From Candidatus Fraserbacteria bacterium (GTDB lineage: Bacteria > Bipolaricaulota > Bipolaricaulia > RBG-16-55-9 > DRXL01), in contig JBBIUX010000002.1 in NCBI GenBank assembly GCA_037440025.1, positions 82,975 to 146,974 on the forward strand: a stretch of DNA of 64,000 bases, written 5' to 3'. The translations under genes and the position numbers were made by a program. The notes below the pieces were generated by a model, which saw only the letters and a list, made by a program, of their open reading frames with translations, searched no databases and was not told the origin of the DNA. Positions 12,007 to 56,587 of this stretch are shown here, piece after piece. How positions within the stretch are numbered: the first letter of the stretch is position 1; every line of letters starts with the position of its first letter.

Positions 12007-12747
12007 TCAATGTCGCGAAAGTTGTGTAATTTGAGAAGCCCCGCTTTGGATCTGTCTGTGCGCTTCTAACAGGCTCATGTCCAGATACCTCCTCAGCGCC
12101 CACTCCTCCGTCACGCGTATCCCGACCGTCGTGGTGAGCACCACCAGGCTCTGCTCGTTGGGGAAGACGCCCACCACCCGCGTCCGCCGCTTGATCTCTT
12201 GAAAGAGCCGCTCCAGCCCGTTGGTGGTGCGAATCCGCCCCTGATGCCCGCTGGGAAAGTCCAAATACGTTAAGGCCTCAATGATCCCGTTCTCGAACAC
12301 CTCCACCGCCTCAGAGAACTCGGCTTTCCAACGACCGCTGAACTGCTCTGCCAGAGCTTCTGCAGTCTCGCGTCGCCGCACCGCAAAGATCGCCCGAAGA
12401 TCCGCGGCTACCTCAGCCTTGGAGACGCCCTGCAAGTACATCTCTAGCACGGCTTCTTCCACCGAGCCGGTCAGCCAGCGGTAACGCTCAAACAACTCCG
12501 TCTGGAAGGTGCCCTCTCGATCACGGGGCACTCGCAACTGCTGAATCTGCCCCACGCCGGTGACCAGATCCCGCTCATACTCTCCGTTGCGTCGGCCCTT
12601 CCGTGTCGGGGAGCGTTGGTAAGGAGTCGCGCCTAGGTGTACGGTCAGTTCCTCTTCCAGAATCTGCTCCAGCAGCGCTTTGACGCCCTCGCGCACGCGG
12701 GTCTCCAGGTCTTGCTTCACCGTCTCTTCCAGCTCTTTCCGCTCCAT
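12007..12747 (-). CDS. IS256 (mutator-type) transposase, internally deleted: N-terminal and C-terminal segments only, DDE core absent
   Basis: ...HLGATPYQRSPTRKGRRNGEYERDLVTGVGQIQQLRVPRDREGTFQTELFERYRW...YLQGVS... gives the IS256 N-region. ...IRTTNGLERLFQEIKRRTRVVGVFPNEQSLVVL...WALRRYLDMS gives the IS256 C-region. About 150-170 central residues are missing. Confidence 0.65.
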   Translation of the reverse strand: MERKELEETVKQDLETRVREGVKALLEQILEEELTVHLGATPYQRSPTRKGRRNGEYERDLVTGVGQIQQLRVPRDREGTFQTELFERYRWLTGSVEEAVLEMYLQGVSKAEVAADLRAIFAVRRRETAEALAEQFSGRWKAEFSEAVEVFENGIIEALTYLDFPSGHQGRIRTTNGLERLFQEIKRRTRVVGVFPNEQSLVVLTTTVGIRVTEEWALRRYLDMSLLEAHRQIQSGASQITQLSRH

Positions 12748-17642: not shown

Positions 17643-19295
17643 ATGACTCAAGATTACAAGGTGAGAGGAGCAGTTTGGACCCCACAGCCTATCGCTGAAC
17701 TGCTGGTCACCTGGGCTGTTTGCTCGGCTACCGACTCGGTGCTCGATCTAGGCTGTGGTGAAGGCGTCTTTCTCTGCGAAGCCATCAAGAGGCTCAAATC
17801 CTTAGGTGCGCCCGTAGAACAAATTGCCTATCAGCTTTCTGGGGCCGAACTGGATCAGGCTACCTACAAGGAGTTACAAGACAAATTGGAACAGTCACTA
17901 GGTCTGGTCCCGCCTCATGTGTACTCGGACGACTTTTTCAAGGCCGAATTTCCTCAGGTTGAGGCTGTTGTTGGGAACCCACCTTATGTAAGGCGTTGGT
18001 GGCTAGACGGTCTTGATGAAATACGATATGTCATCAGCGATACAGCGATAAACTTCTCTCGTTCTACAGATCTAGCTTGCTATTTCGTAGTTCACGCTGC
18101 GAAATTCTTGAAACCGGGAGGCCGACTGGCGCTCATTCTCACCGATAGTTGGCTTGATATGGACTATGGGGTGAACTTCAAGAGGTTCTTACTCGGCCGC
18201 TTCAAGATCCGTGCGATTATCGGCTTTGAAGCTAAAGTCTTTCCCGAACATCTGATCAAGGCCGTTTTGCTCCTGGCAGAAAAACGGAGTAGTGCTCCTC
18301 AAAACGAAACACACCTTCACACGGCCTTCATCCGCTGGAAAACCCTACCCTCACCTTTGGATTGGGACGCTGCTCTCTCTGAAGGTTCACCCTATGCCAT
18401 CAGTGTTTTGGTTAAACCACAGAGTGACTTAAGGCCTAAGGAATCTTGGGGTAAATTTCTCTACGCGCCCCCAACATATTTTCACCTCGCTCAACACCCC
18501 CGACTAGTACCTTTACAAGCCCTGGCCAAGACGCGCATCGGCTTCCAGAGCTTTTGCAAACAATTCTATATTGTGCCAGCGAGATCTCCATGGCCCGTTG
18601 AACCACAATACCTGAAGCCCCTCATCCACTCGCCGAAAGACATTTCTGGTCCCGTCCTGAGCCCAACACAGCCCGCTAAGCACTTTTTGCTTTACTGTGG
18701 TGAGCCCCAGAGCAAGCTTGCAGGAATGCAGGTGCTCCGTTACATTGAATGGGGAGAGTCCCAGAAAATTATCCCACGAGGGAAGGACCAAGAAGTAATC
18801 GGCTTTCACAACCTGCCCCGTGTTAGACGCGCCAGCAGGCAGCCCTGGTACAACGTGGTACCTGAAGTGAATCGCCGAGGAAGCTGGCCCGTTTTGCTTT
18901 TTCGGCGGATATTCAAACGCTATACAGTAATCTGGAATCAAGCTGGTTGGATCGCAAACGAGAATTTTATTGAGCTGCAGCCTAAGCCTGGAGTAAATCT
19001 GTTATCATTGTTAGCCTTTCTGAGCTCTTCTTTTGCCGAACTGCTTTTCCGAGCCCATGCCCATCGCTACGGAGGGGGGGTCTACAACCTCAACCCAGGA
19101 GACATTCGGAGTGTCCCCGTGCTGAACATCCTGAAATTAAGCGAAAATGAACGAAGGCAATTGGCGACAGCCTACGAGTCTTTCCTGTTTTCGGAAGGGC
19201 GAGATCGCCAAGCGCTGGACCAAGTGATTGCGAGCGTCTTAGGCTTAGAAACACCTTCTTTAGAAGACCAGGCCGAGGAAAAACTTGGAGTCTAA
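17643..19295 (+). CDS. N6-adenine DNA methyltransferase, gamma class (Eco57I/PstI-like type II MTase)
   Basis: Motif I VLDLGCGEGVFL (SAM binding) near aa 35 and motif IV VVGNPPYV (NPPY) near aa 112. A C-terminal region about 400 aa long is consistent with a target-recognition domain. Lower GC than the flanks. Confidence 0.65.
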   Translation: MTQDYKVRGAVWTPQPIAELLVTWAVCSATDSVLDLGCGEGVFLCEAIKRLKSLGAPVEQIAYQLSGAELDQATYKELQDKLEQSLGLVPPHVYSDDFFKAEFPQVEAVVGNPPYVRRWWLDGLDEIRYVISDTAINFSRSTDLACYFVVHAAKFLKPGGRLALILTDSWLDMDYGVNFKRFLLGRFKIRAIIGFEAKVFPEHLIKAVLLLAEKRSSAPQNETHLHTAFIRWKTLPSPLDWDAALSEGSPYAISVLVKPQSDLRPKESWGKFLYAPPTYFHLAQHPRLVPLQALAKTRIGFQSFCKQFYIVPARSPWPVEPQYLKPLIHSPKDISGPVLSPTQPAKHFLLYCGEPQSKLAGMQVLRYIEWGESQKIIPRGKDQEVIGFHNLPRVRRASRQPWYNVVPEVNRRGSWPVLLFRRIFKRYTVIWNQAGWIANENFIELQPKPGVNLLSLLAFLSSSFAELLFRAHAHRYGGGVYNLNPGDIRSVPVLNILKLSENERRQLATAYESFLFSEGRDRQALDQVIASVLGLETPSLEDQAEEKLGV

Positions 19296-20179
19296 TGGCG
19301 ACTGCTCGACAAGAAACGATTCTTAAGGCCATTGCTGCGGTTTTGGAGGCCATTGGCTTCCCTCGCCGCTGGAATACGAGGCAGACAGGGTACTGTCTTC
19401 TGGGGCTGCTTGACAAGACGCCGCGTAAAGGCTTGTTACCCGGCAAGACTTGCTTAAATGACGGGGCTCGCATCCATGACATCTTGGAATTCGTCCGAAA
19501 GACATTCCGCGTTAAGGTTGCCGAAAATACAAGAGAGACCTATCGAAAGACCTCTCTCAAGCAACTATTCGACCACGGACTCATCACGCGAGTGCAATCT
19601 TCAACTAATGATCCCAATACGCATTATATCCTCAACCGGGAATTTGAGAAAACGCTGCGCACCTATCTGGAAGCGCCACTCCAACGCAGAACTCAGATTC
19701 TATCCTCATTTAAGAAACCGTCAGTCATTTCAGAAGAGATCGCTGACAAGCGCGGTGTAAGAGTTACAATAGGGGATAACGTTATAGAACTCAGCCTAGG
19801 CCATCATAACCAGTTGGTCAAGCAGATTATAGAAATCTTTGCATCTGCTTTTGTGGACGATCCGGAAGTTCTGTATATAGGTGACACCGCCCATAAGCTC
19901 AAGTATCTCGGTCAGACAGCTGAGAAACTGGGGATTTTCCTTGATGAACATGCCAAGGCTCCTGATGTAATCTTGTACTCAAAAAGCAAGAACATCGTTT
20001 ATATCATCGAAGCCGTCATCAGCAGCGGGGTTTTCTCGCCAGATCGCGTACAGGATGTCGAGAGGGTCTTGTTCGGAGGGCAAGGGAAACAATTCGGTGT
20101 CGAGTATTTTACGGCCTTTCCAGATCGTGCGACCTTTCGCAAGTTCGTCGAAGAAATTGCTTGGGGGACTCAAGTCTAG
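19295..20179 (+). CDS. Candidate cognate restriction endonuclease (inference from context; no motif-level proof)
   Basis: 294-aa ORF translationally coupled to the MTase (TAATG overlap at 19293-19297), in the same low-GC island. Its size fits type II REases such as the PstI/BsuBI family partners of gamma-class A-MTases. Confidence 0.3.
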   Translation: MATARQETILKAIAAVLEAIGFPRRWNTRQTGYCLLGLLDKTPRKGLLPGKTCLNDGARIHDILEFVRKTFRVKVAENTRETYRKTSLKQLFDHGLITRVQSSTNDPNTHYILNREFEKTLRTYLEAPLQRRTQILSSFKKPSVISEEIADKRGVRVTIGDNVIELSLGHHNQLVKQIIEIFASAFVDDPEVLYIGDTAHKLKYLGQTAEKLGIFLDEHAKAPDVILYSKSKNIVYIIEAVISSGVFSPDRVQDVERVLFGGQGKQFGVEYFTAFPDRATFRKFVEEIAWGTQV

Positions 20180-45131: not shown

Positions 45132-46319
45132 ATGCTGAACGCTCGCAAATGGTTCGCTGTGTCAGCTGTTTTATTATTGTTATTGGTCTTCATCGTCGCC
45201 CTGGACAATTACAACCAAGAATGGAAACAGTATCAACGAGCGTATCTGACGAAAATCTTCACGGACAAAGCTAGAACAGAGAAGGGGTCGCTTTCGTTGC
45301 TCGATCAGCTCATGATCGCTGTCAATGCCGAAACGAACCTTCAGATCAAAAAAGTCGTCACCGAAGTGGGCCGTAGCGCCGACTTGTGTATGAGCTGCCA
45401 TGCCAATATTGGCGTTTCGGGTTTCGAGCGAGAGCCTCTCCGGGACTTACGAGAGACCCACAAAGATGTGGCAGTTGTTCAAGAGCTTCCGTTCGATCAG
45501 ATTGGCTGTACGGCGTGTCATGGGGGCAATGCTCTGGCGCTGCGCGCCGAGCCGGCCCACCACGAGATGCGCACACGGTTTGCTCAGATTTTTGAAGAGA
45601 GCATCGAAAAGCTGCACTCAGGGAGTTGGGTTGAGCGCCAGCGGGGGATCGAGCGCATCCGCTGGATGACCGCCAACGATTTCGGTTTTCTCTTCAATGA
45701 CCCTCAAGAGAAGCGCGACGAAGTCATTCAGAAGATCGTCGCCTGGTGGCAACTGCACAAAGACACTTTCTTGGTCGAAGGTTTTGGGGAGCGCAGTTCA
45801 CCCTTCCGTACTGAAAACCCTCAAGCAAACGTGATCGAGCAGCGCACCGACGTCGCGGTCACCGGCGAGCCGTTGCAGTTTGTCGGATCGGCGACCTGTG
45901 TCGCGTGCCATGGCTACCCAGAGATCAGCGATGTCTACATCCCTGAGTCGAGCAAGCAACATGTCGAGCGCTGGTTCCGAGAAGAGTTTATGACGAGTAC
46001 AAACCCCGAAGAGTACCAAGATCATCCGTTCATAGACCAAGAGACGCTCAAGACGATGGACGTGACTTGTGAGGCCTGTCACGGTCCGGGGAGCGAGTAT
46101 ACGAAACTGATGCAAAAGGGCATGGCTCTGGAAGCAGCAGGCCAGAGCGTGGATGCGGCAGCGCTGATCGTAAAGGCGAAAGAAATCGCGCGGGTCAATG
46201 CTCGCCAGAACATCAGCGAGCATGACCCTGCGACAGGGTATGCTCGCATCTGGGCGATCTTCGAACGCTTGCTTGACAAAGCCCTCGCCAGCAAAGGACA
46301 AGTCCAGCCGACCGAATGA
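45132..46319 (+). CDS. Membrane-anchored tetraheme c-type cytochrome
   Basis: N-terminal TM helix and four CxxCH motifs (CMSCH, CTACH, CVACH, CEACH). Confidence 0.7.
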   Translation: MLNARKWFAVSAVLLLLLVFIVALDNYNQEWKQYQRAYLTKIFTDKARTEKGSLSLLDQLMIAVNAETNLQIKKVVTEVGRSADLCMSCHANIGVSGFEREPLRDLRETHKDVAVVQELPFDQIGCTACHGGNALALRAEPAHHEMRTRFAQIFEESIEKLHSGSWVERQRGIERIRWMTANDFGFLFNDPQEKRDEVIQKIVAWWQLHKDTFLVEGFGERSSPFRTENPQANVIEQRTDVAVTGEPLQFVGSATCVACHGYPEISDVYIPESSKQHVERWFREEFMTSTNPEEYQDHPFIDQETLKTMDVTCEACHGPGSEYTKLMQKGMALEAAGQSVDAAALIVKAKEIARVNARQNISEHDPATGYARIWAIFERLLDKALASKGQVQPTE

Positions 46320-46402: not shown

Positions 46403-46834
46403 ATGAAAGTGACCCGAAAAAGCGATTACGGGCTGCGGGCGCTCTGCACCCTCGCCCGACAGTACAACCGAGAGCCGGTGTCCATTGGCCAGCTCTCAGC
46501 GGAGCACAAGATCCCGGAGCCCTTTCTGGAGAAGATCATGCAGGAGCTACGCGAGCATGGCTTGGTGGAGGCCACCCACGGGCGCGGCGGTGGGTACTTG
46601 CTCAAAAAACGCCCATCGCACATATCGCTGCGCGAGATCGTCAAGGCCCTGGACGGCCCCATCGCACTGGTGACCTGTCTCGATCCAGCACTGAAGTGTG
46701 CCATCGAAGCCGACTGCCCCACAAGCTCCGTCTGGGAGATCATTAACCAAAAGCTCGACGAGTATCTCGCGTCGTTAACCTTGGGCGACGTTATGACCAT
46801 GCAGCAGACCGAACGGGTGAAGGTCTCATCATGA
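46403..46834 (+). CDS. Rrf2-family transcriptional regulator (IscR/NsrR-like, putative Fe-S cluster ligands)
   Basis: MKVTRKSDYGLRALCTLA... wHTH domain. Cys cluster C92...C98...C104 (LVTCLDPALKCAIEADC). Confidence 0.8.
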   Translation: MKVTRKSDYGLRALCTLARQYNREPVSIGQLSAEHKIPEPFLEKIMQELREHGLVEATHGRGGGYLLKKRPSHISLREIVKALDGPIALVTCLDPALKCAIEADCPTSSVWEIINQKLDEYLASLTLGDVMTMQQTERVKVSS

Positions 46835-47880
46835 CACTCAGCGAGCGTGCCCGCACAGCCTTGCAAACCGTTGAGATTCCCACCGTACACCGACCACTGA
46901 ACGATTTAGTCGAGCATCTCTCGGTTGACGAGAAGCGATGTGCCCATGTGCGGATGCGCCTCATGCCAGCGTATGCCTCCAAATCCCAACTAAAAACGTG
47001 GACCGAGCAAGCGCTGAAAACAATCCCGGAAATCGAGAGCGTTCAGATAGAATTCGCTCAATCCCCCCGGCCCCACCCCCAAACAATGCATCCAACGCAT
47101 AAGCTGCACTTTCCCCAGATCGCTCATATGCTTGCAGTCTTCAGCGGCAAGGGCGGGGTGGGCAAGAGCACAGTGAGCGTCAATTTGGCTGTAGCACTGG
47201 CGCAGCAGGGCGCGCGAGTCGGGCTCTTTGACGCCGACGTGCATGGGCCCAATATTCCCACTTTACTCGGACTGCAAGGACAGCCCGAAGTGCAGGAGTC
47301 AAAGCTTATTCCCGTTTTCAAATACGGCATTCACGCCATGTCTATCGGGCTGCTCGTAGCCGGGAGCGATCCGCTCATCTGGCGCGGCCCGATGATCTCT
47401 AAAGCGATTAACGAACTCTTAGAGAGCACAGCCTGGCCGGAGCTGGACTATCTGATTTTGGATCTGCCACCGGGAACTGGGGATGCCCAGCTAGGCTTAG
47501 CCCAAGACGTGACGCTCGCCGGGGCTGTCGCTGTCACGACACCCCAAGAAGTAGCACTCTCAGATGTGCGTCGCGGCATCGGGGCGTTTCAGAAGCTCAA
47601 TGTGCCTATTGTGGGATTGATCGAGAATATGGCTTACTATGTTTGTCCCAAGTGTGGTCATCGGGAGTATATCTTTGGGCAGGGGGGCGGCGAAGCTGAA
47701 GCACGACGCCAGAATATCCCTTTGCTGGGACAAATTCCGCTTGACCCAAAGCTGCGCGAGGGCGGCGACTCCGGTATGCCCATCGTCATCGCTGAGCCAT
47801 CATCGCCGGCAGCACAAGGGTTCAAAGAGATCGCTGATTTTTTGATCGAGCGATTTGGCAAACAGCAAACAAAGGGGTGA
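46831..47880 (+). CDS. Fe-S cluster carrier ATPase Mrp/ApbC
   Basis: N-terminal DUF59-like domain, then deviant Walker A SGKGGVGKST and the CPKCGH motif. Confidence 0.85.
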   Translation: MTLSERARTALQTVEIPTVHRPLNDLVEHLSVDEKRCAHVRMRLMPAYASKSQLKTWTEQALKTIPEIESVQIEFAQSPRPHPQTMHPTHKLHFPQIAHMLAVFSGKGGVGKSTVSVNLAVALAQQGARVGLFDADVHGPNIPTLLGLQGQPEVQESKLIPVFKYGIHAMSIGLLVAGSDPLIWRGPMISKAINELLESTAWPELDYLILDLPPGTGDAQLGLAQDVTLAGAVAVTTPQEVALSDVRRGIGAFQKLNVPIVGLIENMAYYVCPKCGHREYIFGQGGGEAEARRQNIPLLGQIPLDPKLREGGDSGMPIVIAEPSSPAAQGFKEIADFLIERFGKQQTKG

Positions 47881-48191
47881 TAGCAGTGACCGCTGACGAT
47901 GTGCGCGAAGTGATCCGCGAGAACGTCTTCGACCCGGAGCTGGGCTACAACGTAGTGGATTTGGGGTTGCTGTATGACGTTGACATCCGCGGCGACAAAG
48001 ATATTCGCTTGGAGCTGACGCTCACGACTGTAGGCTGCCCTCTCTACGAGCAGATTCAAGCCGATTGTGAGCGCGCGATCAAAGAGCATTACGGCGAGGA
48101 CATCAATGTCGAAGTCGAGTTCGTCTTCGACCCGCCTTGGAACCCGGAGATGATGTCGGAAGAGATCCGCGCGGAAATGGGATTTATTTAA
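47877..48191 (+). CDS. DUF59 (MIP18/SufT-like) Fe-S assembly protein
   Basis: 104 aa, ...FDPELGYNVVDLGLLYDVDI...LTLTTVGCPLYEQI... Confidence 0.7.
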   Translation: MIAVTADDVREVIRENVFDPELGYNVVDLGLLYDVDIRGDKDIRLELTLTTVGCPLYEQIQADCERAIKEHYGEDINVEVEFVFDPPWNPEMMSEEIRAEMGFI

Positions 48192-48817
48192 TGTCCCTTT
48201 GTGTGTACTGTAGCAAGCGAGCAGGCAAGCGGGCCTGTCCGGCCTTGGGAGGGCTGATCTGCCCGACGTGCTGTGGGCAGCATCGCGGGGTTGATATTAA
48301 CTGCCCCATCAGTTGCAAGTATTTCAGAACGCACGAGAGCTATCAACGCCTCCGGCTCGCTGAAGAGTTTCATGCCCTCTGGATCGAAAAGACGGAGCCG
48401 CTCTACAAAGCGGGTAAAGAGAGGTTGATTGATTTTATCGCAATGGTAGAAATGCTCGTCTATCAATTCTATCGCGAGCGGGCCTTGGGCACGGACAGCG
48501 AAGTCTTGGAAGCTTTAGAATCGCTACGGCGTCGGTTCAGCCCCTTAATGATTGTGGAAGCGGGGGGGACAGCTCTGGCGAACCATCTTTGGAATGGGCT
48601 GCAAGAGTATTCAAAAAAAGAGCCGCTGGTTCCCGAAGAAGCCCAAGAAGGGATAGGGAAGAGTTTGGAGATTTTCAAAGCGTACTCAGACGCAACACAG
48701 CCGAGAAAGTATCTAAACGGGCTGTTAGGGCATGTCGAGCGATATTTTACGCTGCCCGCTGAACTCAAAGAGAGCCTGTCACTCATTGCTACTCCACAGA
48801 TTATCACACCGGAGTAA
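48191..48817 (+). CDS. Hypothetical protein with N-terminal 8-Cys cluster
   Basis: Start MSLCVYCSKRAGKRACPALGGLICPTCCGQHRGVDINCPISCKYF.... The track N-extension is rejected. Confidence 0.5.
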   Translation: MSLCVYCSKRAGKRACPALGGLICPTCCGQHRGVDINCPISCKYFRTHESYQRLRLAEEFHALWIEKTEPLYKAGKERLIDFIAMVEMLVYQFYRERALGTDSEVLEALESLRRRFSPLMIVEAGGTALANHLWNGLQEYSKKEPLVPEEAQEGIGKSLEIFKAYSDATQPRKYLNGLLGHVERYFTLPAELKESLSLIATPQIITPE

Positions 48818-48821
48818 TAGC

Positions 48822-49874
48822 TTATTGCCAGGGGATAACCCATTCCCATTGGGGCCCGCGGAAGTATTGCCCAATAATAATGAGCACAATAGCAGTGACA
48901 ATCATCACCGTAAAGAGCGCCGTCGTCACTGGGCGATCTCGCAGACGCCGCCCCACCGGCTTGCTCTTGTCTTTGCGCCAAAACTCTAAGTACGGCTCGA
49001 TGTAGGGAATTCCTAAGAGCAAGAGCACGAAAACCCCCGGCGCGATCACCCCGCCGATGGCCACGCTCGTAAACGGCCCTAGATTGGGTGAGATCGCCAA
49101 CAGCTCTTGAATGCCTACAAAGTACCAGGGGGCTTTCTCAGGGTTGGGCGTGAACGATGGGGTCGCTGGTTCTTCGAGAGGCGCATCCCGAAAGACTGAA
49201 TAAATCCCCAGCCCCGCCGTCAGCAAGAACAAGATTGTAAATGCTACATAGAGAAAATACGGATACGAGATGATCTCCTCTTCTTCGGCGGGTAAACGCT
49301 TGGCGAACGCATCCAGAATTTTTTGCACCTTCTCGTCGGTCAGTTCGAACTCGGTCGGGATCTCCTTCACTTTGTGCTCTTTCGACACATAATTAAAGAT
49401 CGTATGCAGGGTTTCAAAATCTCGCGGATCGCCGCCGCCTTCTAGTAACGACTCCGTGCGGTTGCTCAAGTCTTTAAGTCTTTTTACAGTGAGCGTTTGC
49501 GTCGAAGGAAGCTGGCGCAACGGGGCTTTTTCGGCGGCGTAGGCTAAGACATCGCGAATCAGGTCCGGTTCAACCTGGAGGGCTTCCGCGACTTCATAGC
49601 CGGGGATTTCAACTTCAATATCTTGGGTGACGTTGATCTGGCAGGTCAGCCGCCAGCCCTTGGCAATCTGCTCCTCGCCCAGGACATCAAGTTCGTTCTG
49701 GTTAGGATCGCCGCCGCCCTGTAAGACGCGCGCCGCGCAAGTTGAGCACTGCCCTTGGCCGCCGCAGGTCGCCGGAAGCTGGTCATCGTAGCGATTCTCT
49801 TGAATGAACTTTAAGAGATTGGTCCCCGGACGGACTTCAAACTCTTTCTGGCCAAGAATGACGACTTTGGGCAT
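48822..49874 (-). CDS. Fusion protein: plant-type 2Fe-2S ferredoxin (N-terminal) + cytochrome b C-terminal / b6f subunit IV (PetD)-like membrane domain
   Basis: N-terminal ...ATCGGQGQCSTCAARV...RLTCQ... (Fer2). C-terminal ...EEPATPSFTPNPEKAPWYFVGIQELLAI... plus three TM helices resembling PetD or the cytochrome b C-terminus. Confidence 0.65.
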   Translation of the reverse strand: MPKVVILGQKEFEVRPGTNLLKFIQENRYDDQLPATCGGQGQCSTCAARVLQGGGDPNQNELDVLGEEQIAKGWRLTCQINVTQDIEVEIPGYEVAEALQVEPDLIRDVLAYAAEKAPLRQLPSTQTLTVKRLKDLSNRTESLLEGGGDPRDFETLHTIFNYVSKEHKVKEIPTEFELTDEKVQKILDAFAKRLPAEEEEIISYPYFLYVAFTILFLLTAGLGIYSVFRDAPLEEPATPSFTPNPEKAPWYFVGIQELLAISPNLGPFTSVAIGGVIAPGVFVLLLLGIPYIEPYLEFWRKDKSKPVGRRLRDRPVTTALFTVMIVTAIVLIIIGQYFRGPQWEWVIPWQ

Positions 49875-49875
49875 A

Positions 49876-50562
49876 CTAGCTCGCTTTCACGCCAGCTTCG
49901 GTTACGGCTTTCTGTAGCTTCTCCAAGACCGGCTTGCCGCCGGGGTAACAGCCATCCAGCCGCGCTTTGTTTACTGCTAAAGCTTCAGCGAATTCTTCAC
50001 ACGTGGGGTAGCCACAAGCAAGACAGTCAAACCCCGGCAGCACAGCGCGCAATTTCGCCGCCGCGGGCGAGAGCGCTGGGGCAGCGGGCTTAGTCACTTC
50101 TTCGGCCTTCCCCTCAACTTTGGGCCAAGACATCACCAAGGGCTTAAAGAGCTCTATCTTCAGGTCGTTCTTCATCGAAACTTGGCAGGAGAGCACCCAG
50201 CCCTCCTTGCGCAGTTTATCGCTCAACGGGCCCAACATCGCCGTGGTGATCTGATCGGCCGGCAACCCTTCGATTGCCTTGACGCGACAGGTCGCGCAGG
50301 TGCCCTTGCCACCGCATTGAGCAAAGAGGTCATAGCCCGCTTTTTTGAGCGCCTGCATCAGATTCTGTTCTAAGGGCAAAACCAGCTCGTTGCCGTCGTT
50401 GGTGATTTTGACGCGCGCCTCTCCCTCAACGGTGAGCAAGTTTTTTACCAGACCCAAAACGAAAGCCACCGAGATGGCCATGAGGGCCATTGTCGCAACC
50501 GGTACGAGATAAACCATAAGATCAGTCACAAGCCCTTGTGAAAAGCTTGAAGCTGTTCTCAT
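49876..50562 (-). CDS. RnfB-like subunit: TM helix + 2Fe-2S ferredoxin domain + RnfB-type CxxCGxxxC Fe-S domain (start uncertain)
   Basis: ...QCGGKGTCATCRV...LSCQ... (Fer2) and ...DCLACGYPTCEEFAEA...DGCYPGG. The track's long N-extension overlapping rnfA is rejected. Start at 50562 or 50517. Confidence 0.55.
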   Translation of the reverse strand: MRTASSFSQGLVTDLMVYLVPVATMALMAISVAFVLGLVKNLLTVEGEARVKITNDGNELVLPLEQNLMQALKKAGYDLFAQCGGKGTCATCRVKAIEGLPADQITTAMLGPLSDKLRKEGWVLSCQVSMKNDLKIELFKPLVMSWPKVEGKAEEVTKPAAPALSPAAAKLRAVLPGFDCLACGYPTCEEFAEALAVNKARLDGCYPGGKPVLEKLQKAVTEAGVKAS

Positions 50563-51155
50563 CCTCCAAAGTCCCGAATATTGATCATCCCGGAAAAGCC
50601 GACGAAGCTCATAGCCATCAGGCCGGCGATAATCAGCGCTAAGCCGGGGCCCTTGAGGCCCTCCGGTATGGGAGCAAATCGTAAGCGCTCCCGGATCGCG
50701 GCCATCAAGATAATCGCTAAGGCCCAGCCTACACCGCCGCCAAAGCCATAGGCGACGCTCTGGGCAAACCCCAGATTCCACGTAGCAAGGGCAAAGAGCA
50801 CTCCACCCAAAATGGCGCAGTTGACTGTGATCAAAGGCAGAAAGACTCCTAACGACGTATACAGGGCAGGGAGGAAGCGCTTCATGAACATCTCCACGAC
50901 TTGCACCAAGAACGCAATGGTCACGATGTAGACAATGAGCGCAAGATAGCTCACTCCCAGGGGGTCGAGGACAAAGTGCTTGATGAGCCAATTGGCGGGC
51001 AAGGTCATAGTCAGCACGAAGATCACGGCCATGCCCATCCCCGACGCCGACGCGTATTCGCCCGAAACCCCGATAAATGGGCAGATTCCCAAGAACGTCG
51101 TGAGCAAAATGTTATTCGTCAGGATCGCACCCAGAACGATGAGAAAGACATCCAT
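50559..51155 (-). CDS. rnfA: Rnf complex subunit A (RnfA/NqrE family)
   Basis: 198 aa polytopic; ...NNILLTTFLGICPFIGVS.... Confidence 0.8.
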   Translation of the reverse strand: MDVFLIVLGAILTNNILLTTFLGICPFIGVSGEYASASGMGMAVIFVLTMTLPANWLIKHFVLDPLGVSYLALIVYIVTIAFLVQVVEMFMKRFLPALYTSLGVFLPLITVNCAILGGVLFALATWNLGFAQSVAYGFGGGVGWALAIILMAAIRERLRFAPIPEGLKGPGLALIIAGLMAMSFVGFSGMINIRDFGG

Positions 51156-51158
51156 ACG

Positions 51159-51857
51159 TTACGCGCCTCCTCCGATCTGGCCCCCCGGCGAATACTGACG
51201 CACGATCCCCACGTAAAGCCCCACGACCAGAAAAGCCCCCGCAGGGATGATCATGATGACCCAAGAAGTCCAACTGCTGAAGATCTGAATCCCAAATAAG
51301 CTGCCGAAGCCCAGCAGCTCACGGATGATGCCCAACAGTGTGAGAGACATCGTGAAGCCTAAGCCCACACCGATGGCATCTAAGGCCGACAGGCCCGGGC
51401 TGTTCTGGCTGGCAAAGGCTTCCGCGCGTCCCAGCACAAAACAGTTCGTAATAATCAACGGAACGTACGGCCCCAGGGCCGCCGACAACGGCGGCAGGTA
51501 CGCTCGCAGAGAGATGTCAACCACGGTGACCCAGAAGGCGATGACGATCATATACGCAGGCAGCCGCACCTCAGCAGGGATGACGTTGCGCAGGACAGCT
51601 ACGGTGGCGCTCGATGCGATGGTAGCGATCATGGTGGCCAACCCCATAGCCATGCCGTTGATGGCCATGTTGGTTGCACCCATGGTTGGACACATCGCTA
51701 AGATCATTCGAAACGTCGGGTTGTCGTCCCAGATATCTCGGACCAGCTCCTTCCATGATTTGGTCTGGGGCAGACGTTGTGTCAATGGAATCGCTGGGGC
51801 TGATGCTTGCATGACATTCGAAATTGCTGCTGTCTTCACTTCAGCCATGTGCCTCAA
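51159..51857 (-). CDS. rnfE: Rnf complex subunit E (RnfE/NqrD family)
   Basis: 232 aa polytopic; ...DDNPTFRMILAMCPTMG.... Confidence 0.8.
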   Translation of the reverse strand: MRHMAEVKTAAISNVMQASAPAIPLTQRLPQTKSWKELVRDIWDDNPTFRMILAMCPTMGATNMAINGMAMGLATMIATIASSATVAVLRNVIPAEVRLPAYMIVIAFWVTVVDISLRAYLPPLSAALGPYVPLIITNCFVLGRAEAFASQNSPGLSALDAIGVGLGFTMSLTLLGIIRELLGFGSLFGIQIFSSWTSWVIMIIPAGAFLVVGLYVGIVRQYSPGGQIGGGA

Positions 51858-51932: not shown

Positions 51933-52634
51933 CTATTTTTTCTGGTCTTTCAGGGCCTTTCTCAAGTTGGCCATCGCTTCGTTCAGTAGGTCGCGCACCG
52001 TCGTTGACGTATACGTCGCCCCGGTGATGGCGTCGAACTGATAGGGAGCCTTAGGAGTGCTTTCATCCCGAAATTTGACGAACTCGATCTTCGGTCCAGT
52101 CTTGACCCCCTTGAACTGGCTCCAGAACTTCTCTTCGGTCATGCGAAAGCCCAAGCCGGGAGTCTCGCCGATCTCGAACTCGACCACATGGGCCCCCAGA
52201 ATTTCAGAGAGATCGGTCTTGAGAGCTGCTTGCATCGCGACCACGCCCTGAAAGCCGCTGCCCGTAATACGAACGACATAGGCCGACAGCTCCCCACCGA
52301 TCTTGTCCTGATAAAACTTCCAGTAGACGAAGCTGTCGGTCTTGATCTCTTCAATGTGCTCTTTGAAATACTGGTCGACCTGGGCAGGGGTCAGCTGGGG
52401 AAGCCCTTCTTTGGGGAAGAGTTCTTCAGCAGTGTAAGCACCCAAGGCCACGAGAATACTGGAGCGCAGACGGGCTTTCGCGTTAGCGGCGATAGTCGCC
52501 TTGGTCACTTCGTTGACGAGGGCCAAGAGCCCGCCAGCCACCACAGCGATGGCCGTGAGCACGAAGATCATGCGCCACTCGTGCGCACCGATCAGTGGTT
52601 TCTTCTTTTTAGTGGGGGTGTGTTGCTCAGCCAT
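51933..52634 (-). CDS. rnfG: Rnf complex subunit G (FMN-binding)
   Basis: N-terminal TM anchor and FMN-binding domain with ...ITGATYTSTTV... flavinylation motif. Confidence 0.75.
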   Translation of the reverse strand: MAEQHTPTKKKKPLIGAHEWRMIFVLTAIAVVAGGLLALVNEVTKATIAANAKARLRSSILVALGAYTAEELFPKEGLPQLTPAQVDQYFKEHIEEIKTDSFVYWKFYQDKIGGELSAYVVRITGSGFQGVVAMQAALKTDLSEILGAHVVEFEIGETPGLGFRMTEEKFWSQFKGVKTGPKIEFVKFRDESTPKAPYQFDAITGATYTSTTVRDLLNEAMANLRKALKDQKK

Positions 52635-52637
52635 GGG

Positions 52638-53756
52638 TCACCTCTTTTGCACAGCTGGTGCAGAGAAGCTCTTGGGAATCGTAAAACGATCGAGCAAGGG
52701 CGTGAACATGTTCCCTATTAAGATAGAGAACGTCACCCACTCGGCATAGCCTGTGAGGCCGCGCCCCAGCACAGTCAAAACTCCTAACATTATACCGAAG
52801 ATCCAACGTCCACGAACGGTCATGGGACTAGTAACGGGGTCGGTGGCGTTGAGAAAGGCTGCAAAGAGCAGCCCGCCGGAGAGCACGGCGTACAAGCCGT
52901 CGGGGAAGTCATTCGGCGCGGCAAAACTGAGCAACTGGGAGAGAAGCCCTGCGCTGAGGATCATCACAACGGAGACGCGCCAGTCAATGACCCGCGTTGA
53001 TAACAGATACAGCCCCCCCAGCAGGACGAGAATAGCTGACGTCGCCCCTAAACTATCAGCCCGGCCAAAGCCCGTCAAGAGCGTCAAGAGATCGGGATTA
53101 GCTATATCAGGAGAATTGAACGCCCCCAAGGGTGTCGCCTTAGCGATGGCATCTACAGCTTCAGCCGTCTCCGGGGACCAGTGCACCAAGCCCCCTAAGC
53201 CGTCGGTCAACGGATTGAAGGGCACGTACCATCTGGTAGTCATCGCCGAGGGGAACGCTAATAACAAAAAAGCTCGTCCACTGATAGCCGGATTGAAAAT
53301 GTTGTAGCCTGAGCCGCCAAAAAGTTCTTTGATGACAATAGCAAAGGCGATCCCAACCGCCACCATCCAGAAGGGCAGCGTCGGAGGCAGCGCCAGCGCA
53401 TACAACATGCACGTCACCAACAAGCCTTCGGTAATCTCGTGTTTGCGGATCGCACAGAACGTGAGTTCGACGATCCCCCCGATGAGATATGTCAAAAGAA
53501 TGATCGCCAGCGAACGCCAGCCATAAAAATAAATGCTCGCTAAGACCAAGGGAATGCAGGCAATGATCGGTGCTCCCATGTACCGTTGCATGCCGATGGC
53601 ATCACGAATGTAGGGTGCTTGGCGGGCAGATTTGTCGCTCCCGCCAAAGATCGAGTCTTTCAAGCCCTCCCAGAGAATGGCGAAACCGTCGCGGCGACGG
53701 GCTTGCAGATCGTGATGGATTTTTTCGAAGAAATTATAGATTCTGTCTTTTAACAT
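52638..53756 (-). CDS. rnfD: Rnf complex subunit D (RnfD/NqrB family)
   Basis: 372 aa polytopic membrane protein, NqrB/RnfD-like. Confidence 0.8.
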   Translation of the reverse strand: MLKDRIYNFFEKIHHDLQARRRDGFAILWEGLKDSIFGGSDKSARQAPYIRDAIGMQRYMGAPIIACIPLVLASIYFYGWRSLAIILLTYLIGGIVELTFCAIRKHEITEGLLVTCMLYALALPPTLPFWMVAVGIAFAIVIKELFGGSGYNIFNPAISGRAFLLLAFPSAMTTRWYVPFNPLTDGLGGLVHWSPETAEAVDAIAKATPLGAFNSPDIANPDLLTLLTGFGRADSLGATSAILVLLGGLYLLSTRVIDWRVSVVMILSAGLLSQLLSFAAPNDFPDGLYAVLSGGLLFAAFLNATDPVTSPMTVRGRWIFGIMLGVLTVLGRGLTGYAEWVTFSILIGNMFTPLLDRFTIPKSFSAPAVQKR

Positions 53757-53765
53757 TCTGGCTCC

Positions 53766-55190
53766 TTAGACCGCCTCTTCTATGATTTTGCGTTTGCCCT
53801 CGCGGATCTGTTCGAGCAACGGGATTTTACTGGGGCAGACATACGCACAGAGTCCGCACTCGATACACGCAAAGAGATCAATATGCTGGGCTTCGCTTAG
53901 AAGACCGTTGGCCGAGTATTCTCCCAAGAGAGCCGGCACCAAATTCTGTGGACAAATGTCAACACAATACCCGCATTTGACGCAAGGGCGAGGGTTCCCA
54001 TTGAGGCTCGTCGTAGCCCGCTTCGTTTTGACCCAGGGCAGACTGAGATAGGCCCCCGTAAAAGAATCCCGGTCAAAACCGGGGCCGGCAACGGGAAAGA
54101 GCTCTCTCTCGGCTTCTCTGAGGGCGATGACTGCCGGGGTATCTTTGAGAATGGGCGCCTCGACATCGCCTTGGGCTTGTCCACGCAAGACGCCTCCCAG
54201 GACAATGCGTCCGTTGCTCTTGAGGTTATTGTCGAGCAAGTCCTGCAACGGTGTCCCTACTCGCACGCGGAAGTTCCCCGGTTCTTTGAGGGCCGATCCG
54301 GCGACGGAGACAACACGCTCCACAAAGGGCCGCCCTTCGACCACGGCCTTATACGTAGCGACACAGTGCTGAACATCTTGCACAACACACTGAACGTCCG
54401 TGGCGTAGCCCCGCTGGGGCATGAGCAGCCCCAGCAGCGTGCGGATCAAGACGGCGTCGTCGCCCTGGGGGTATTTGGGGCGCAATTGATGAATTGTGCA
54501 CCAGTCATAGTATTCGAATCGCGTGACCAATTCTTCGTAGATTCTGGGCTTGTTATAGCCGAGCCCAATATGGACCTGCACGTTGCCCAGGGCTTGCCGA
54601 AGAATTTTGATGCCGTTGACGAACTGGTCAAACTCTTCGTACATTAATTGATCAGTCGCTTCGCAGAACGGTTCAGTTTCTATGGCGTTGATCAATAAAT
54701 AGCGAATGCGATCGGGTGTGGTCAGGGCCGAGTGAAAGACTGTGGGAAAGCCGGCTTGGCCTCCGGAAGTCACTCCGGCTTCGTAGAGAATCTTCCCCAG
54801 CTCTGCTGGGGAGAGGCGCTCGTAGTTGGCCGGGCGGTCGAGCAATTTCCAATCGTCTCTGCCGTCAGATTCGATAATGACAGAGAGCACCTCGCCGCTC
54901 AGGGGGTGCGGGCGCTTCTCTATTTTGAGAATTTTTCCCGAGATGCTAGTGTGAACCGGCGTTGATGGCTTTTGCGGATCGGGCTCATTGCGTCCGATGA
55001 TCTGTCCTGCCTTGACGCGGTCACCTTCTTTGACACCAGGCGCCACTTCGGCGCCGAAGCCCTGACGCAAAGGGATAATAACTTTCTTTGGGAGTGACGC
55101 GGTTTTCAATCGCTTGCCGCGCGGGGTCCCCTCAAAGAGCCCAAAATAGTGTCCGCCCTGAAAGGTCTTTAGCGATCCCAGAACGGCCAT
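53766..55190 (-). CDS. rnfC: Rnf complex subunit C (NADH-binding, two [4Fe-4S] clusters)
   Basis: Start MAVLGSLKTFQGGHY (ATG 55190). ...LLINAIETEPF..., and C-terminal CVKCGYCVDICP + CIECGLCAYVCP, which distinguish RnfC from NqrA. The track N-extension is rejected. Confidence 0.8.
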   Translation of the reverse strand: MAVLGSLKTFQGGHYFGLFEGTPRGKRLKTASLPKKVIIPLRQGFGAEVAPGVKEGDRVKAGQIIGRNEPDPQKPSTPVHTSISGKILKIEKRPHPLSGEVLSVIIESDGRDDWKLLDRPANYERLSPAELGKILYEAGVTSGGQAGFPTVFHSALTTPDRIRYLLINAIETEPFCEATDQLMYEEFDQFVNGIKILRQALGNVQVHIGLGYNKPRIYEELVTRFEYYDWCTIHQLRPKYPQGDDAVLIRTLLGLLMPQRGYATDVQCVVQDVQHCVATYKAVVEGRPFVERVVSVAGSALKEPGNFRVRVGTPLQDLLDNNLKSNGRIVLGGVLRGQAQGDVEAPILKDTPAVIALREAERELFPVAGPGFDRDSFTGAYLSLPWVKTKRATTSLNGNPRPCVKCGYCVDICPQNLVPALLGEYSANGLLSEAQHIDLFACIECGLCAYVCPSKIPLLEQIREGKRKIIEEAV

Positions 55191-55191: not shown

Positions 55192-55950
55192 TTATTGTTT
55201 CTTCCTTTCTTCGGTCCAATATGGCTTGCTGTACTCGTCTTTACGAATTCTCCAGAAATGCAGCGCGACCAGAAAGACCAACGCCATCGGGAGAACGAAG
55301 ACATGAATGACGTACCAGCGCAAGAGCGAGGGCTGCCAGAGATCCGTGCCTCCCAAGAGAATCTGTTGCACATAGAACCCGATAAACGGCGTGCCATCGG
55401 CGATGTTGCTGGCAATCTTAGCTGCATAGTAGCCTAATTGATCCCAAGGCAAGATATACCCACTGAAAGCGAACATAATCGTAATCACCAAGAGCAAGAC
55501 GCCGATGACCCAGTTGAACTCACGCGGCTTCTGATACGATCCGGTAAAGAAAACTCTCAACATATGGAAGAAGACGGCGAAGACCATCAGCTCGGCGGCC
55601 CACTTGTGCATGTTGCGCATGAAACGTCCCAAAGGGACAGCGTTGACGATCTCGCGGATCGAATCATACGCCCGCTCGGCGGAGGGCACATAGTAAAACA
55701 TCAGAAAGACCCCGGTAATCACTGTGATCAGAAAGAGCCAGGTGGAGACGACTCCCATCCAGAGCCAATTGTAGCTGAGCCGCGCGGATTCTCTGTGAAT
55801 TTTGGCGGGCAAGATGTGCACGAAGAAGTTGCGGCGGTTCATCGCCAGCAGATCGGCCTTGGTCTGAGGGAGTCCCTCGCGACGGAAGATCGAGAGCCAG
55901 AGGCGCGAGCGCCGAATGCTCTGGAGAACGAGCAGGAGCCTATCCATCAT
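55192..55950 (-). CDS. petB: Cytochrome b6-type subunit (N-terminal half of cytochrome b; PetB-like)
   Basis: Four TM helices with bis-His haem ligands (...HKWAAELMVFAVFFHML... and ...HVFVLPMALVFLVALHFW...). No C-terminal half. Confidence 0.75.
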   Translation of the reverse strand: MMDRLLLVLQSIRRSRLWLSIFRREGLPQTKADLLAMNRRNFFVHILPAKIHRESARLSYNWLWMGVVSTWLFLITVITGVFLMFYYVPSAERAYDSIREIVNAVPLGRFMRNMHKWAAELMVFAVFFHMLRVFFTGSYQKPREFNWVIGVLLLVITIMFAFSGYILPWDQLGYYAAKIASNIADGTPFIGFYVQQILLGGTDLWQPSLLRWYVIHVFVLPMALVFLVALHFWRIRKDEYSKPYWTEERKKQ

Positions 55951-56519
55951 GAGAACTTGATGTCACTCCCATCGGGCGCAGGTCCCTCGATGGCTTTTCC
56001 ATCGGCAGTCAGATACTGCGTGTTCGAGGCGATCTTGGCGTTGTCGACTTGGAGACGTCCGTCAGGCGTGAGGGTCAGCTCATAAAACGGCAGTGGTCGC
56101 GGCGCTGGTCCTCCCAAGACTCGCCCGTCCCGCGCGAAGACGCTGCCGTGACAAGGGCAGAGGGCATGTACTTCTTGATACTCTTTGCTAGGAGGCCCAA
56201 AGGGTTTATAGCTACATCCCAGATGCGTGCAGACCATCGAGAGTGCCTGAAAACCAATTGGTGTGCGAAAGATGAAAACCCGTTTCGCTTCGATGGGCCT
56301 CATCTCGCCAATTTGATAATCACCGGGACGACCCACGGTAAACGTCGTGGTGGGCTCATAGGTTAATTGCGGCTTGAGATAGTAGGGAATACTTTGGGCA
56401 ACCCCGCCCATGGCCAACGCGAACGAGCCCCAGCCCAGCCATCCAAGGAATTTCCTTCGCGTCAGCGAGCTTCTCTCTGTGGGAAATTCAAAACTTGAGT
56501 CTTTGTCCGCCTCCATCAA
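55947..56519 (-). CDS. petC: Rieske [2Fe-2S] iron-sulfur protein with Tat signal
   Basis: RRKFLGW twin-arginine motif; CTHLGC...CPCHGS Rieske boxes. Confidence 0.8.
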   Translation of the reverse strand: MMEADKDSSFEFPTERSSLTRRKFLGWLGWGSFALAMGGVAQSIPYYLKPQLTYEPTTTFTVGRPGDYQIGEMRPIEAKRVFIFRTPIGFQALSMVCTHLGCSYKPFGPPSKEYQEVHALCPCHGSVFARDGRVLGGPAPRPLPFYELTLTPDGRLQVDNAKIASNTQYLTADGKAIEGPAPDGSDIKFS

Positions 56520-56587
56520 AATCTTTCTCCTCGTTTTATGCGCTGATTATAACAGGGGCTCTGAGGCCTGTCAAACACGGTAAAGCC

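Follow-up and report, generated by a model that had tools for sequence, protein, structure and literature searches.

A mosaic of RnfB- and NqrF-type shuttle domains at the RnfB position of a predicted Rieske/cytochrome b6-rnf operon in Bipolaricaulota

RESULTS

Organization of the rnf locus

We analyzed a 64,000-nucleotide stretch of Candidatus Fraserbacteria DNA (GenBank assembly GCA_037440025.1, contig JBBIUX010000002.1, positions 82,975 to 146,974), which is referred to as the window throughout, and focused on a small gene that occupies the position of rnfB directly behind rnfA on the minus strand. In an earlier description (the original prediction) this gene had been classified as an atypical RnfB within an rnf operon. 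Here, we found that the rnf genes had been recognized correctly, but the extent of the operon had not, since its Rieske/cytochrome b6 head and a fusion protein carrying a cytochrome b subunit IV (SUIV) domain had been missed. The gene order on the minus strand is Rieske protein, cytochrome b6, RnfC, RnfD, RnfG, RnfE, RnfA, RnfB-position subunit and the SUIV fusion protein, which also involves a ferredoxin-type Fer2 domain (Fer2-SUIV). The two halves of cytochrome b thus flank the rnf genes. The constituents of the operon are as follows (dN/dS, ratio of nonsynonymous to synonymous substitution rates):

56546..56574, minus strand: extended sigma-70-type promoter (TTGACA-17-TATAAT plus TG) with 12/12 consensus matches, the best in the region; assigned by consensus match only
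55947..56519, minus strand: Rieske iron-sulfur protein with twin-arginine signal RRKFL and CTHLGC and CPCHGS boxes (Pfam Rieske; PetC/QcrA models)
55192..55950, minus strand: four-helix cytochrome b6-type subunit (1vf5_A cytochrome b6, E=3e-47; Pfam, NCBIfam)
53766..55190, minus strand: RnfC with RnfC_N, Nuo51-type NADH/FMN domain, SLBB and 2x[4Fe-4S] (TIGR01945, 327.6 bits, cut-off 246; Pfam)
52638..53756, minus strand: RnfD with the flavinylation threonine in DAIAKATPL (TIGR rnfD, 255 bits, over the cut-off; motif alignment)
51933..52634, minus strand: RnfG with FMN_bind domain and flavinylation motif DAITGAT (Pfam, NCBIfam, sequence)
51159..51857, minus strand: RnfE with cluster cysteines in AMCPT and TNCFVLG (Pfam, NCBIfam, sequence)
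50559..51155, minus strand: RnfA with intramembrane [2Fe-2S] cysteines in GICPF and VNCAILG (Pfam Rnf-Nqr, 1.5e-55; TIGR models)
50518..50558, minus strand: 41-nucleotide spacer between rnfA and the RnfB-position gene, particular to this genome (1-nucleotide gap in most orthologs)
49876..50517, minus strand: gene of the RnfB-position subunit, 213 amino acids (open reading frame and sequence; Pfam Fer2 and FeS; start from 13 orthologous loci; dN/dS)
48822..49874, minus strand: Fer2-SUIV with Fer2 (residues 1-92), a helical domain of about 100 amino acids and a three-helix cytochrome b subunit IV domain (Pfam, ExtQ/QcrB models, PDB alignments, AlphaFold2)

Most junctions between these genes are overlaps or gaps of a few nucleotides (the Rieske and cytochrome b6 genes overlap by 4 nucleotides) and the promoter sits just upstream of the Rieske gene. 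Judged from this arrangement, the genes from Rieske to Fer2-SUIV are predicted to form one operon behind a single promoter, which is not a plain rnf operon.

All five Rnf core subunits (RnfC, RnfD, RnfG, RnfE, RnfA) are present with their cofactor motifs. The RnfA of the window scored 216.7 bits with the rnfA model and 202.7 bits with the nqrE model, which is under both cut-offs, and the membrane core of the window may represent a deep branch between Rnf and Nqr. Unlike this near tie, a true NqrE (L030:9348-9956) yielded scores of 299.9 versus 192.1.

In the cytochrome b6-type subunit all four haem-ligand histidines are conserved in the alignment with 1vf5_A. The position of the haem c_n cysteine (Cys35 of the CxGG motif) is taken by Trp64, and the alignment to cytochrome b6 begins with the next residue (Leu36). 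No CxxCH protein, which could represent a cytochrome f or c1, is encoded within the operon.

The original prediction had stated that both terminal genes of the operon employ 2Fe-2S ferredoxin-type domains and this proved correct, since the gene behind the RnfB-position gene also begins with Fer2 (Pfam). Besides Fer2, a weak Cytochrom_B_C match was obtained for this Fer2-SUIV protein, and its C-terminal 45% matches full-length cytochromes b at ~1e-22. When its C-terminal 155 amino acids were compared with the PDB, we obtained weak yet specific matches to cytochrome b (helices E-G) and to b6f subunit IV. PDB searches with the whole protein and its profile were swamped by ferredoxins, and Foldseek on the whole model returned Fer2 matches alone. 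The Qo segment reads TPNPEKAPWYF, in which P-W-Y-F is invariant and APWY constitutes the Qo motif. For the Fer2 domain, NqrF was the best fold match (root-mean-square deviation ~2 A). In the b6f topology, the N-terminus of subunit IV is located on the cytoplasmic (n) side next to Qi and, by homology, the Fer2 domain of Fer2-SUIV should lie on the cytoplasmic side. The fold of the helical middle domain (about 100 amino acids) was not recognized.

Start codon and integrity of the RnfB-position gene

The open reading frame of the RnfB-position gene is located on the minus strand and ends with a TAG stop codon at 49876-49878. For its start, two ATG codons (50562 and 50517) had been considered in the original prediction. 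Comparison of the rnfA junction at 13 orthologous loci decided in favor of 50517. At 12 of these loci an in-frame stop is found 4-17 codons 5' of a conserved M-(V/P)-Y-(L/I)-V, and an alternative start is absent. The in-frame stops upstream of the conserved methionine place the start at 50517, giving coordinates 49876-50517 and a protein of 213 amino acids, and they rule out a start at 50562. The ATG at 50562 belongs to the 'GGA TGA' end of rnfA. In most orthologs the ATG of the RnfB-position gene follows 1 nucleotide past the rnfA stop, and GGAGG within the last rnfA codons serves as Shine-Dalgarno sequence. It is the 41-nucleotide spacer of the window that makes the upstream ATG resemble a possible start.

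The RnfB-position gene is real and strongly conserved, and it is not a frameshift artefact. Its dN/dS against eight orthologs amounts to 0.045-0.09, with synonymous sites close to saturation, and the architecture of 205-215 amino acids is repeated in 58 protein clusters from ~22 species-level genomes. The downstream gene begins 1 nucleotide past the stop codon, which leaves no room for lost domains. One might argue that a truncated NqrF or RnfB has arisen here by frameshift, mis-assembly or pseudogenisation, since the architecture is odd and all NCBIfam matches stay under their cut-offs. However, an architecture shared by 58 clusters, eight invariant cysteines, a dN/dS of ~0.05 and the tight junction to the next gene make the probability of such a decayed gene negligible. 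The frameshift that had been envisaged in the original prediction as another explanation was therefore rejected, as was a truncated pseudogene. The exact sequence of the 213-amino acid protein is absent from a collection of 15 billion proteins.

Domain structure and cluster ligands

Pfam assigned two domains to the RnfB-position subunit, which are Fer2 (PF00111) at E=4e-10 and, over the full model (1-33), the RnfB-type 'FeS' domain (PF04060) at E=1.5e-10. In contrast, no Fer4 (4Fe-4S ferredoxin) family matched at E<=0.01 (Pfam), and neither FAD_binding_6 nor NAD_binding_1 was found in the 213 residues (Pfam, NCBIfam). An AlphaFold2 model built on 53 homologs (mean predicted local distance difference test, pLDDT, 73) led to the following subdivision, in which residue numbers refer to the 213-amino acid protein:

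50425..50508, minus strand: N-terminal transmembrane anchor helix, residues 4-31 (AlphaFold2; aligns with the NqrF transmembrane helix in the profile-to-PDB search and in Foldseek)
50128..50421, minus strand: NqrF-type [2Fe-2S] ferredoxin domain, residues 33-130 (PF00111; TIGR01941 N-terminus; NqrF top match by profile and fold)
50068..50127, minus strand: flexible low-complexity linker, residues 131-150 (pLDDT <50 at 134-146; length and composition vary in the family alignment)
49894..50067, minus strand: small helical RnfB-type [4Fe-4S] 'FeS' domain, residues 151-208 (PF04060; RnfB chain matches)

The hydrophobic segment of the anchor reads VYLVPVATMALMAISVAFVLGLV. The Fer2 ligands are C68, C74, C77 and C111 (spacing Cx5Cx2Cx33C) and those of the FeS domain C165, C168, C173 and C190 (CxxCx4Cx16C). 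All eight cluster cysteines are invariant in the 53 homologs. The protein ends 5 residues past the FeS domain and a polyferredoxin domain is absent in all of the aligned homologs. The cluster motifs read QCGGKGTCATC...C and CLACGYPTCEEFA...GCYPGG, and both had been quoted, the former as CGGKGTCATC...C, in the original prediction. Its domain reading (a transmembrane helix, a Fer2-like domain and a C-terminal RnfB-type module, with no 4Fe-4S ferredoxin domain) agrees with Pfam and the structural model. The idea of a 2Fe-2S domain in place of the 4Fe-4S domains holds for the composition but not for the placement, since Fer2 sits between the transmembrane helix and the FeS module, which is the NqrF order.

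Searching the PDB with the family profile, we obtained NqrF (8a1t_F) as best match, which covers residues 6-136 (transmembrane helix and [2Fe-2S] domain) at E=1.4e-17. Similarly, Foldseek on the AlphaFold2 model returned NqrF as top match (128 columns, 29-30% identity), and the best NCBIfam model was nqrF (TIGR01941 positions 6-121, E=1e-17), although its 64 bits are far from the cut-off of 295. The RnfB chains 7zc6_B, 8ahx_B and 9eri_B match the FeS module alone (RnfB residues ~30-89). TIGR01944 (rnfB) scored 44.3 bits (cut-off 68.7) with a match restricted to the FeS segment (residues 165-221). A full-length match to canonical RnfB, which had been named beforehand as an outcome that would speak against an atypical protein, was thus not found, and the domain scans together with the curated cut-offs rule out a full-length canonical RnfB or NqrF.

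In sequence, the Fer2 domain resembles that of the RACo/AcsV corrinoid activators about as closely as that of NqrF, and for this reason the term NqrF-type rests on the combination of transmembrane anchor and Fer2 and not on the Fer2 sequence alone. A reductive activator of the RACo/AcsV kind was ruled out, since the protein has a transmembrane helix and no ASKHA domain.

Comparison with RnfB and NqrF

According to a 2025 RNF/NQR review, RnfB consists of a transmembrane helix, a small [4Fe-4S] domain on a flexible tether and a large domain with several [4Fe-4S] clusters as acceptor of ferredoxin, and in every structurally characterised RnfB it is this C-terminal domain with its 2-7 [4Fe-4S] clusters that accepts ferredoxin. 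NqrF also has a transmembrane helix, but its small flexible domain is of the [2Fe-2S] type and the protein is completed by an FNR-like FAD/NADH module. The two proteins are structurally unrelated, but both small domains feed the intramembrane [2Fe-2S] cluster of RnfA-E/NqrD-E (2025 RNF/NQR review), and neither has a counterpart in the complex of the other (Reyes-Prieto et al.).

Like RnfB (TIGR01944), the protein of the window is encoded next to rnfA, together with rnfC, D, G, E and A in one rnf operon, and combines a single N-terminal transmembrane anchor with the small flexible PF04060 domain and its CxxCx4Cx16C ligand pattern. Unlike RnfB, it carries this domain at the C-terminus and not directly behind the transmembrane helix, with the extra [2Fe-2S] domain in between, lacks the ferredoxin-accepting C-terminal domain with 2-7 [4Fe-4S] clusters and stays under the TIGR01944 cut-off. 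With NqrF (TIGR01941; 8a1t_F, 7xk3_F) it shares the N-terminal transmembrane helix followed by a small [2Fe-2S] domain with CGGxGxCxxC spacing, but not the FNR-like FAD/NADH domains. The operon also differs from nqr operons, since its A/C-type subunit is a genuine cofactor-bearing RnfC and not a cofactor-less NqrA. The protein is a mosaic in which the small shuttle domains known from RnfB and from NqrF occur together and neither large input module is present. It is best described as an altered Rnf/Nqr input subunit that fails the defining features of both.

Distribution of the protein family

At 90% identity the family falls into 58 clusters, and at 50% into about 10. Among the named sources and in a scan of 185,579 species-representative genomes, full-length members were found in ~22, all of which are metagenome-assembled genomes (MAGs) labelled Bipolaricaulota/Acetothermia, except for a few that are labelled "Fraserbacteria" or "uncultured Thermotogae" and have the same synteny. 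Outside this clade the scan matched only genuine NqrF N-termini and RACo-like Fer2 domains. A filter-free hidden Markov model search of 1.84 billion representatives returned 10 proteins at E<=1e-30, past which the E-values fell steeply (1.5e-46 to 2.6e-27) to proteins matching one half alone. This search (~10 full-length clusters, all others half-matches except for a Fer2-FeS-NuoC fusion) rules out the same architecture outside the clade. Database names of homologs of this protein and of Fer2-SUIV are "ferredoxin", "2Fe-2S iron-sulfur cluster-binding protein" and, once, "NqrF".

The exceptional fusion (P0154, L088:331-1314) joins a close relative of the Fer2-FeS module (E=6e-53), which lacks a transmembrane helix, to a Complex I 30-kDa (NuoC) domain. 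Its gene is flanked by NuoB-like and [NiFe]-hydrogenase-large-subunit-like genes. Here, the same two-cluster module appears to be plugged into an enzyme of the complex-I / group-4-hydrogenase type.

The Fer2-SUIV family is similar in size (~50 clusters, as compared with 58) and carries Bipolaricaulota-type labels wherever it is labelled. SUIV relatives outside the clade are devoid of the Fer2 extension.

Operon variants in related genomes

Operon types were defined by tblastn synteny and gene calls across related loci, which were labelled L001 and so forth. The full type is present in the window and in L006, L007, L011, L012, L015-L018 and L020, with an identical gene order down to 51% identity of the RnfB-position protein, the gene of which directly follows rnfA in every full operon.

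A reduced type (L001-L003, L021, L023-L027, L086/87) consists of Rieske, cytochrome b6, RnfC, RnfD, the RnfB-position protein and Fer2-SUIV, and RnfG, RnfE and RnfA are absent. In these operons the RnfB-position protein carries an N-terminal extension, which aligns with RnfA residues ~126-193 (E~1e-8) and corresponds to the last two transmembrane helices of RnfA, but lacks its cluster cysteines. The fusion with an RnfA remnant points to a position of the anchor helix next to RnfA. The reduced-type RnfD has kept its threonine, but the remaining flavinylation context (Asp...Ala-Thr) is degraded. At L086/87 the Fer2 and SUIV parts are separate genes and at L021 there seem to be two tandem Fer2 domains.

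A third type (L004/5, L022, L089, L090) involves RnfC, RnfD, RnfG and the RnfB-position protein. RnfA and RnfE are absent, and the FeS module is present in two copies in some of these proteins and missing in others. These loci belong to a marine/hydrothermal clade and have aldehyde dehydrogenase genes upstream.

L010 belongs to a close relative. Its nucleotide sequence is collinear with that of the window, and its RnfB-position protein is 86% identical. It lacks exactly Rieske and cytochrome b6, Fer2-SUIV and a tetrahaem cytochrome c, and the boundaries are clean. This clean co-absence identifies the four cytochrome-module genes as one functional unit. In the window the tetrahaem cytochrome is encoded 2.5 kb from the operon on the opposite strand:

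45132..46319, plus strand: membrane-anchored tetrahaem cytochrome c, tentative periplasmic partner of the Rieske protein (4 CxxCH; weak cytochrome c Pfam matches)

This cytochrome may be the acceptor of the Rieske protein. It is linked to the operon in the clade of the window and in L020, where a six-haem homolog adjoins the Rieske gene (L020:1879-3885). A role as universal Rieske partner is not supported, since no such gene is present within 10 kb in L017, L018 and the reduced operons.

Surroundings of the operon

Between the operon and the tetrahaem cytochrome gene, the plus strand of the window (46403-48817) encodes an Rrf2-family regulator, an Mrp/ApbC-type Fe-S carrier ATPase, a DUF59 protein and a cysteine-rich protein of 209 amino acids, for which no family match was obtained. 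The block is syntenic in L006-L016 and its products could be maturation or regulation factors for an Fe-S-rich system. Among the open reading frames of at least 200 amino acids at 3-39 kb of the window, we found no canonical rnfB, ferredoxin or quinone-biosynthesis gene. The rest of the window carries housekeeping genes (ribosomal proteins, EF-G, MutL, GatA, PGK, GlmS, acetyl-CoA synthetase), amid which a Mutator-family transposase fragment (12007-12747, minus strand) and a PstI/BsuBI-type restriction-modification pair (17643-20179, plus strand) are located.

DISCUSSION

Possible role of the RnfB-position protein

The protein described here may function as a swinging two-cluster shuttle in the RnfB position, which would wire the b-haem branch of the co-encoded Rieske/cytochrome b6 complex to RnfC and thereby to NAD(H), and in our judgment the case for this role is evenly balanced. 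The original prediction had suggested a non-canonical route of electron entry or exit. With the Rieske protein, cytochrome b6 and Fer2-SUIV in the same operon, such a route can now be named, and we infer its electron-transfer steps, the physical supercomplex and the direction of flow as follows. By homology with RnfB and NqrF, the small domains of which pass on single electrons, the transmembrane helix would dock beside RnfA and the proximal [2Fe-2S] domain would reach the [2Fe-2S] cluster of RnfA/E. The [4Fe-4S] domain, which is held by a flexible tether of 20-35 residues, would collect or deliver electrons at a distance, and the genomic context suggests that this distal end exchanges them with the cytoplasmic Fer2 domain fused to SUIV. 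The operon would thereby connect the low-potential haem-b branch of a Rieske/cytochrome b complex of the APWY type with the NAD(H) site of RnfC. In the direction that we prefer, quinol would be oxidized at Qo, with one electron passing to the Rieske protein and a periplasmic cytochrome, and the other one travelling via the b haems, Fer2-SUIV, the shuttle and Rnf to NAD+; the reverse is also conceivable. This direction of quinol bifurcation is modelled on the proposal for anammox bacteria and our confidence in it is low. In loci devoid of the cytochrome module, this shuttle would presumably serve soluble ferredoxin.

Such wiring is supported by the single promoter and tight junctions of the predicted operon, by the gene order with flanking cytochrome b halves, which is conserved down to ~40-50% identity, by the similar sizes of the two families and by the clade-specific Fer2 extension of SUIV. 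The mosaic character of the RnfB-position protein, the location of its gene behind rnfA and the fused RnfA remnant also fit, as do the APWY motif and the n-side NAD(P)H oxidoreductases that accompany related cytochrome b6 complexes in Dehalococcoidales and anammox bacteria. Moreover, the lack of RnfG, RnfE and RnfA makes a ferredoxin:NAD+ ion pump impossible in the reduced operons, yet the wire from NAD(H) to cytochrome b remains. A more far-reaching version holds that the Rieske/cytochrome b6 complex and Rnf are joined in a supercomplex, in which the low-potential electron from Qo passes via the SUIV Fer2 and the shuttle to NAD+ (or, in the opposite direction, electrons from NADH and from a periplasmic donor are confurcated onto menaquinone), and that the RnfB-position protein represents a living intermediate between RnfB and NqrF. 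We put this forward tentatively and regard it as somewhat doubtful.

Several observations weigh against a shuttle to cytochrome b. L010 has kept RnfCDGEA and the RnfB-position gene, with all of its cysteines intact and a dN/dS of 0.05, and the Rnf core with this protein can therefore stand alone. The RnfCDG-type loci encode the protein next to no cytochrome b at all and, taken together with L010, they indicate that it does not strictly depend on a cytochrome b partner. No c-type cytochrome is encoded within 10 kb of the operon in L017, in L018 or in any reduced operon. For the full operon there are also energetic objections, since ion export by Rnf needs a donor well below -320 mV, which the b haems may not provide, and electron flow in the opposite sense, with Rnf run backwards from NADH to quinone, would use up the ion gradient.

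Alternative explanations

The main rival is a self-sufficient minimal RnfB. Here, Rnf would operate as a normal ferredoxin:NAD+ pump with soluble ferredoxin docking on the [4Fe-4S] or the [2Fe-2S] domain of the RnfB-position protein, and the cytochrome complex would be a separate, quinol-oxidising unit that is merely co-transcribed. The Fer2 domain of SUIV would in this case also exchange electrons with the soluble ferredoxin pool. The strong purifying selection on the genes retained in L010 after the loss of the cytochrome genes and the RnfCDG clusters without cytochrome b fit with such a pump, the window has kept every Rnf cofactor motif intact, and published reconstructions treat the complex as a normal Rnf. 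However, the poly-[4Fe-4S] domain that accepts ferredoxin is missing from the whole family, and the reduced operons cannot pump but nevertheless retain the RnfB-position gene next to Fer2-SUIV. It would also be difficult to see why the cytochrome b halves flank the rnf genes in conserved order and why the Fer2 extension of SUIV is seen only where the RnfB-position protein occurs. On balance we consider a minimal RnfB unlikely, albeit worth serious attention.

Alternatively, the operon might encode an Nqr-like reductase, in which electrons from NADH (RnfC) or ferredoxin (Fer2/FeS) run downhill via the RnfB-position protein and Fer2-SUIV to haem bH/Qi and reduce menaquinone, and this would be a hard-wired form of the route from ferredoxin to b6f that has been put forward for cyclic electron flow. 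The NqrF-type character of both Fer2 domains points in this direction, as does the N-terminal Fer2 of SUIV, which the b6f topology and the SUIV alignment place on the n-side near Qi, and electron transfer from ferredoxin to b6f on this side is an established proposal. In addition, type II Acetothermia MAGs encode Rnf but no Nuo (Colman et al. 2022), so that an entry of NADH electrons into the quinone pool is otherwise missing there. These MAGs may include L017, which carries the Oman well name NSHQ14B and apparently comes from the same setting. On the other hand, flow from RnfC to the RnfB side in a full operon consumes the gradient and would be wasteful on the exergonic step from NADH to menaquinone. 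The same energy argument was made by Hauser et al. for anammox. Furthermore, the constant co-encoding of a complete Qo/Rieske apparatus is left unexplained and the haem c_n cysteine is absent. We regard such a reductase as improbable.

Relation to known cytochrome and Rnf systems

With b6f-type complexes the operon shares a four-helix cytochrome b with its four haem histidines, a separate three-helix SUIV with a Qo motif and a Rieske protein with a twin-arginine signal, but it differs by the lack of the covalent haem c_n cysteine and of a cytochrome f or c1 gene and by the APWY variant of the Qo motif. APWY marks a recognised, biochemically uncharacterised clade, for which reverse or non-standard operation has been proposed. 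Like the donation of electrons by ferredoxin/FNR to the stromal side of b6f, the arrangement places a plant-type [2Fe-2S] domain at the n-side of a b6/SUIV complex; unlike in cyclic flow, a covalent fusion connects this domain to SUIV, and the cytochrome b6-type subunit lacks the haem c_n cysteine.

A close parallel is provided by anammox bacteria, whose Rieske/cytochrome b complexes include an NAD(P) oxidoreductase subunit (Kuste4569-4574, Kustd1480-1485; Hauser et al. 2025, PMC12954380), for which quinol-driven bifurcation to NAD(P)+ is still a proposal (PMC12954380). Both systems combine a b6-like four-helix cytochrome b with an SUIV-like subunit, have no cytochrome f/c1 and employ a cytoplasmic NAD(H)-binding module that is reached through Fe-S clusters. 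The anammox complexes involve a multihaem cytochrome c, whereas in the present system a multihaem c is only encoded nearby, and only in some genomes. Moreover, the NAD module consists here of RnfC and the Rnf membrane core instead of a GltD-like FAD protein, the Fe-S link would be formed by the SUIV-fused Fer2 and the RnfB-position protein, and an ion-translocating module may lie in the path. In a marine Dehalococcoidales genome (L092:4965-9740), the gene of a GltD-like Fe-S/FAD NAD(P)H oxidoreductase of 679 amino acids overlaps the start of a cytochrome b6 gene, the product of which is 45% identical to that of the window, and an SUIV-like gene (AAWY motif), a Rieske gene and a dihaem c gene follow. 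On sequence grounds this corresponds to a layout of the anammox type outside Planctomycetes. A cytoplasmic NAD(P)(H) module on b6-type complexes is thus a recurring theme (anammox, Dehalococcoidales and the operon described here).

Methanosarcina Rnf employs a canonical polyferredoxin RnfB and is not known to include a Rieske/cytochrome b. In the present operon, in contrast, RnfB itself is remodelled. In Methanosarcina acetivorans, Rnf is reported to be combined with the multihaem cytochrome MmcA, and in this respect the two systems resemble each other, since an rnf cluster is extended by a cytochrome and Rnf is placed within a membrane electron transport chain.

We found no account of the RnfB-position protein or of the operon in the searchable literature that combines Rieske or cytochrome b with Rnf and/or Bipolaricaulota/Acetothermia, although other reports may exist. 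The 2025 RNF/NQR review mentions neither Rieske nor cytochrome b, and Colman et al. (2022) described the Rnf of the type II Acetothermia MAGs as a ferredoxin:NAD+ complex.

Biological implications

Rnf and Nqr have been described as complexes with a shared membrane core and unrelated input subunits. The RnfB-position protein combines the small shuttles of both, and it thus bears directly on the exchange of input modules when Nqr arose from Rnf. If the two complexes are physically coupled, the operon would constitute a simple and genetically compact system in which two debated ideas could be probed, namely quinol bifurcation to NAD(P)H and direct ferredoxin-type exchange on the n-side of b6-type complexes. 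If it exists, the joined supercomplex would represent a new class of respiratory machine, in which the low-potential electron of the quinol is not returned to the quinone pool, and a membrane-anchored NqrF-type [2Fe-2S] shuttle could serve an Rnf core beside the [4Fe-4S] shuttle of RnfB without any FNR domain. Metabolic reconstructions of Bipolaricaulota/Acetothermia score these genes as an ordinary ferredoxin:NAD+ Rnf, and the schemes of energy conservation drawn for these deep-branching acetogens may need revision.

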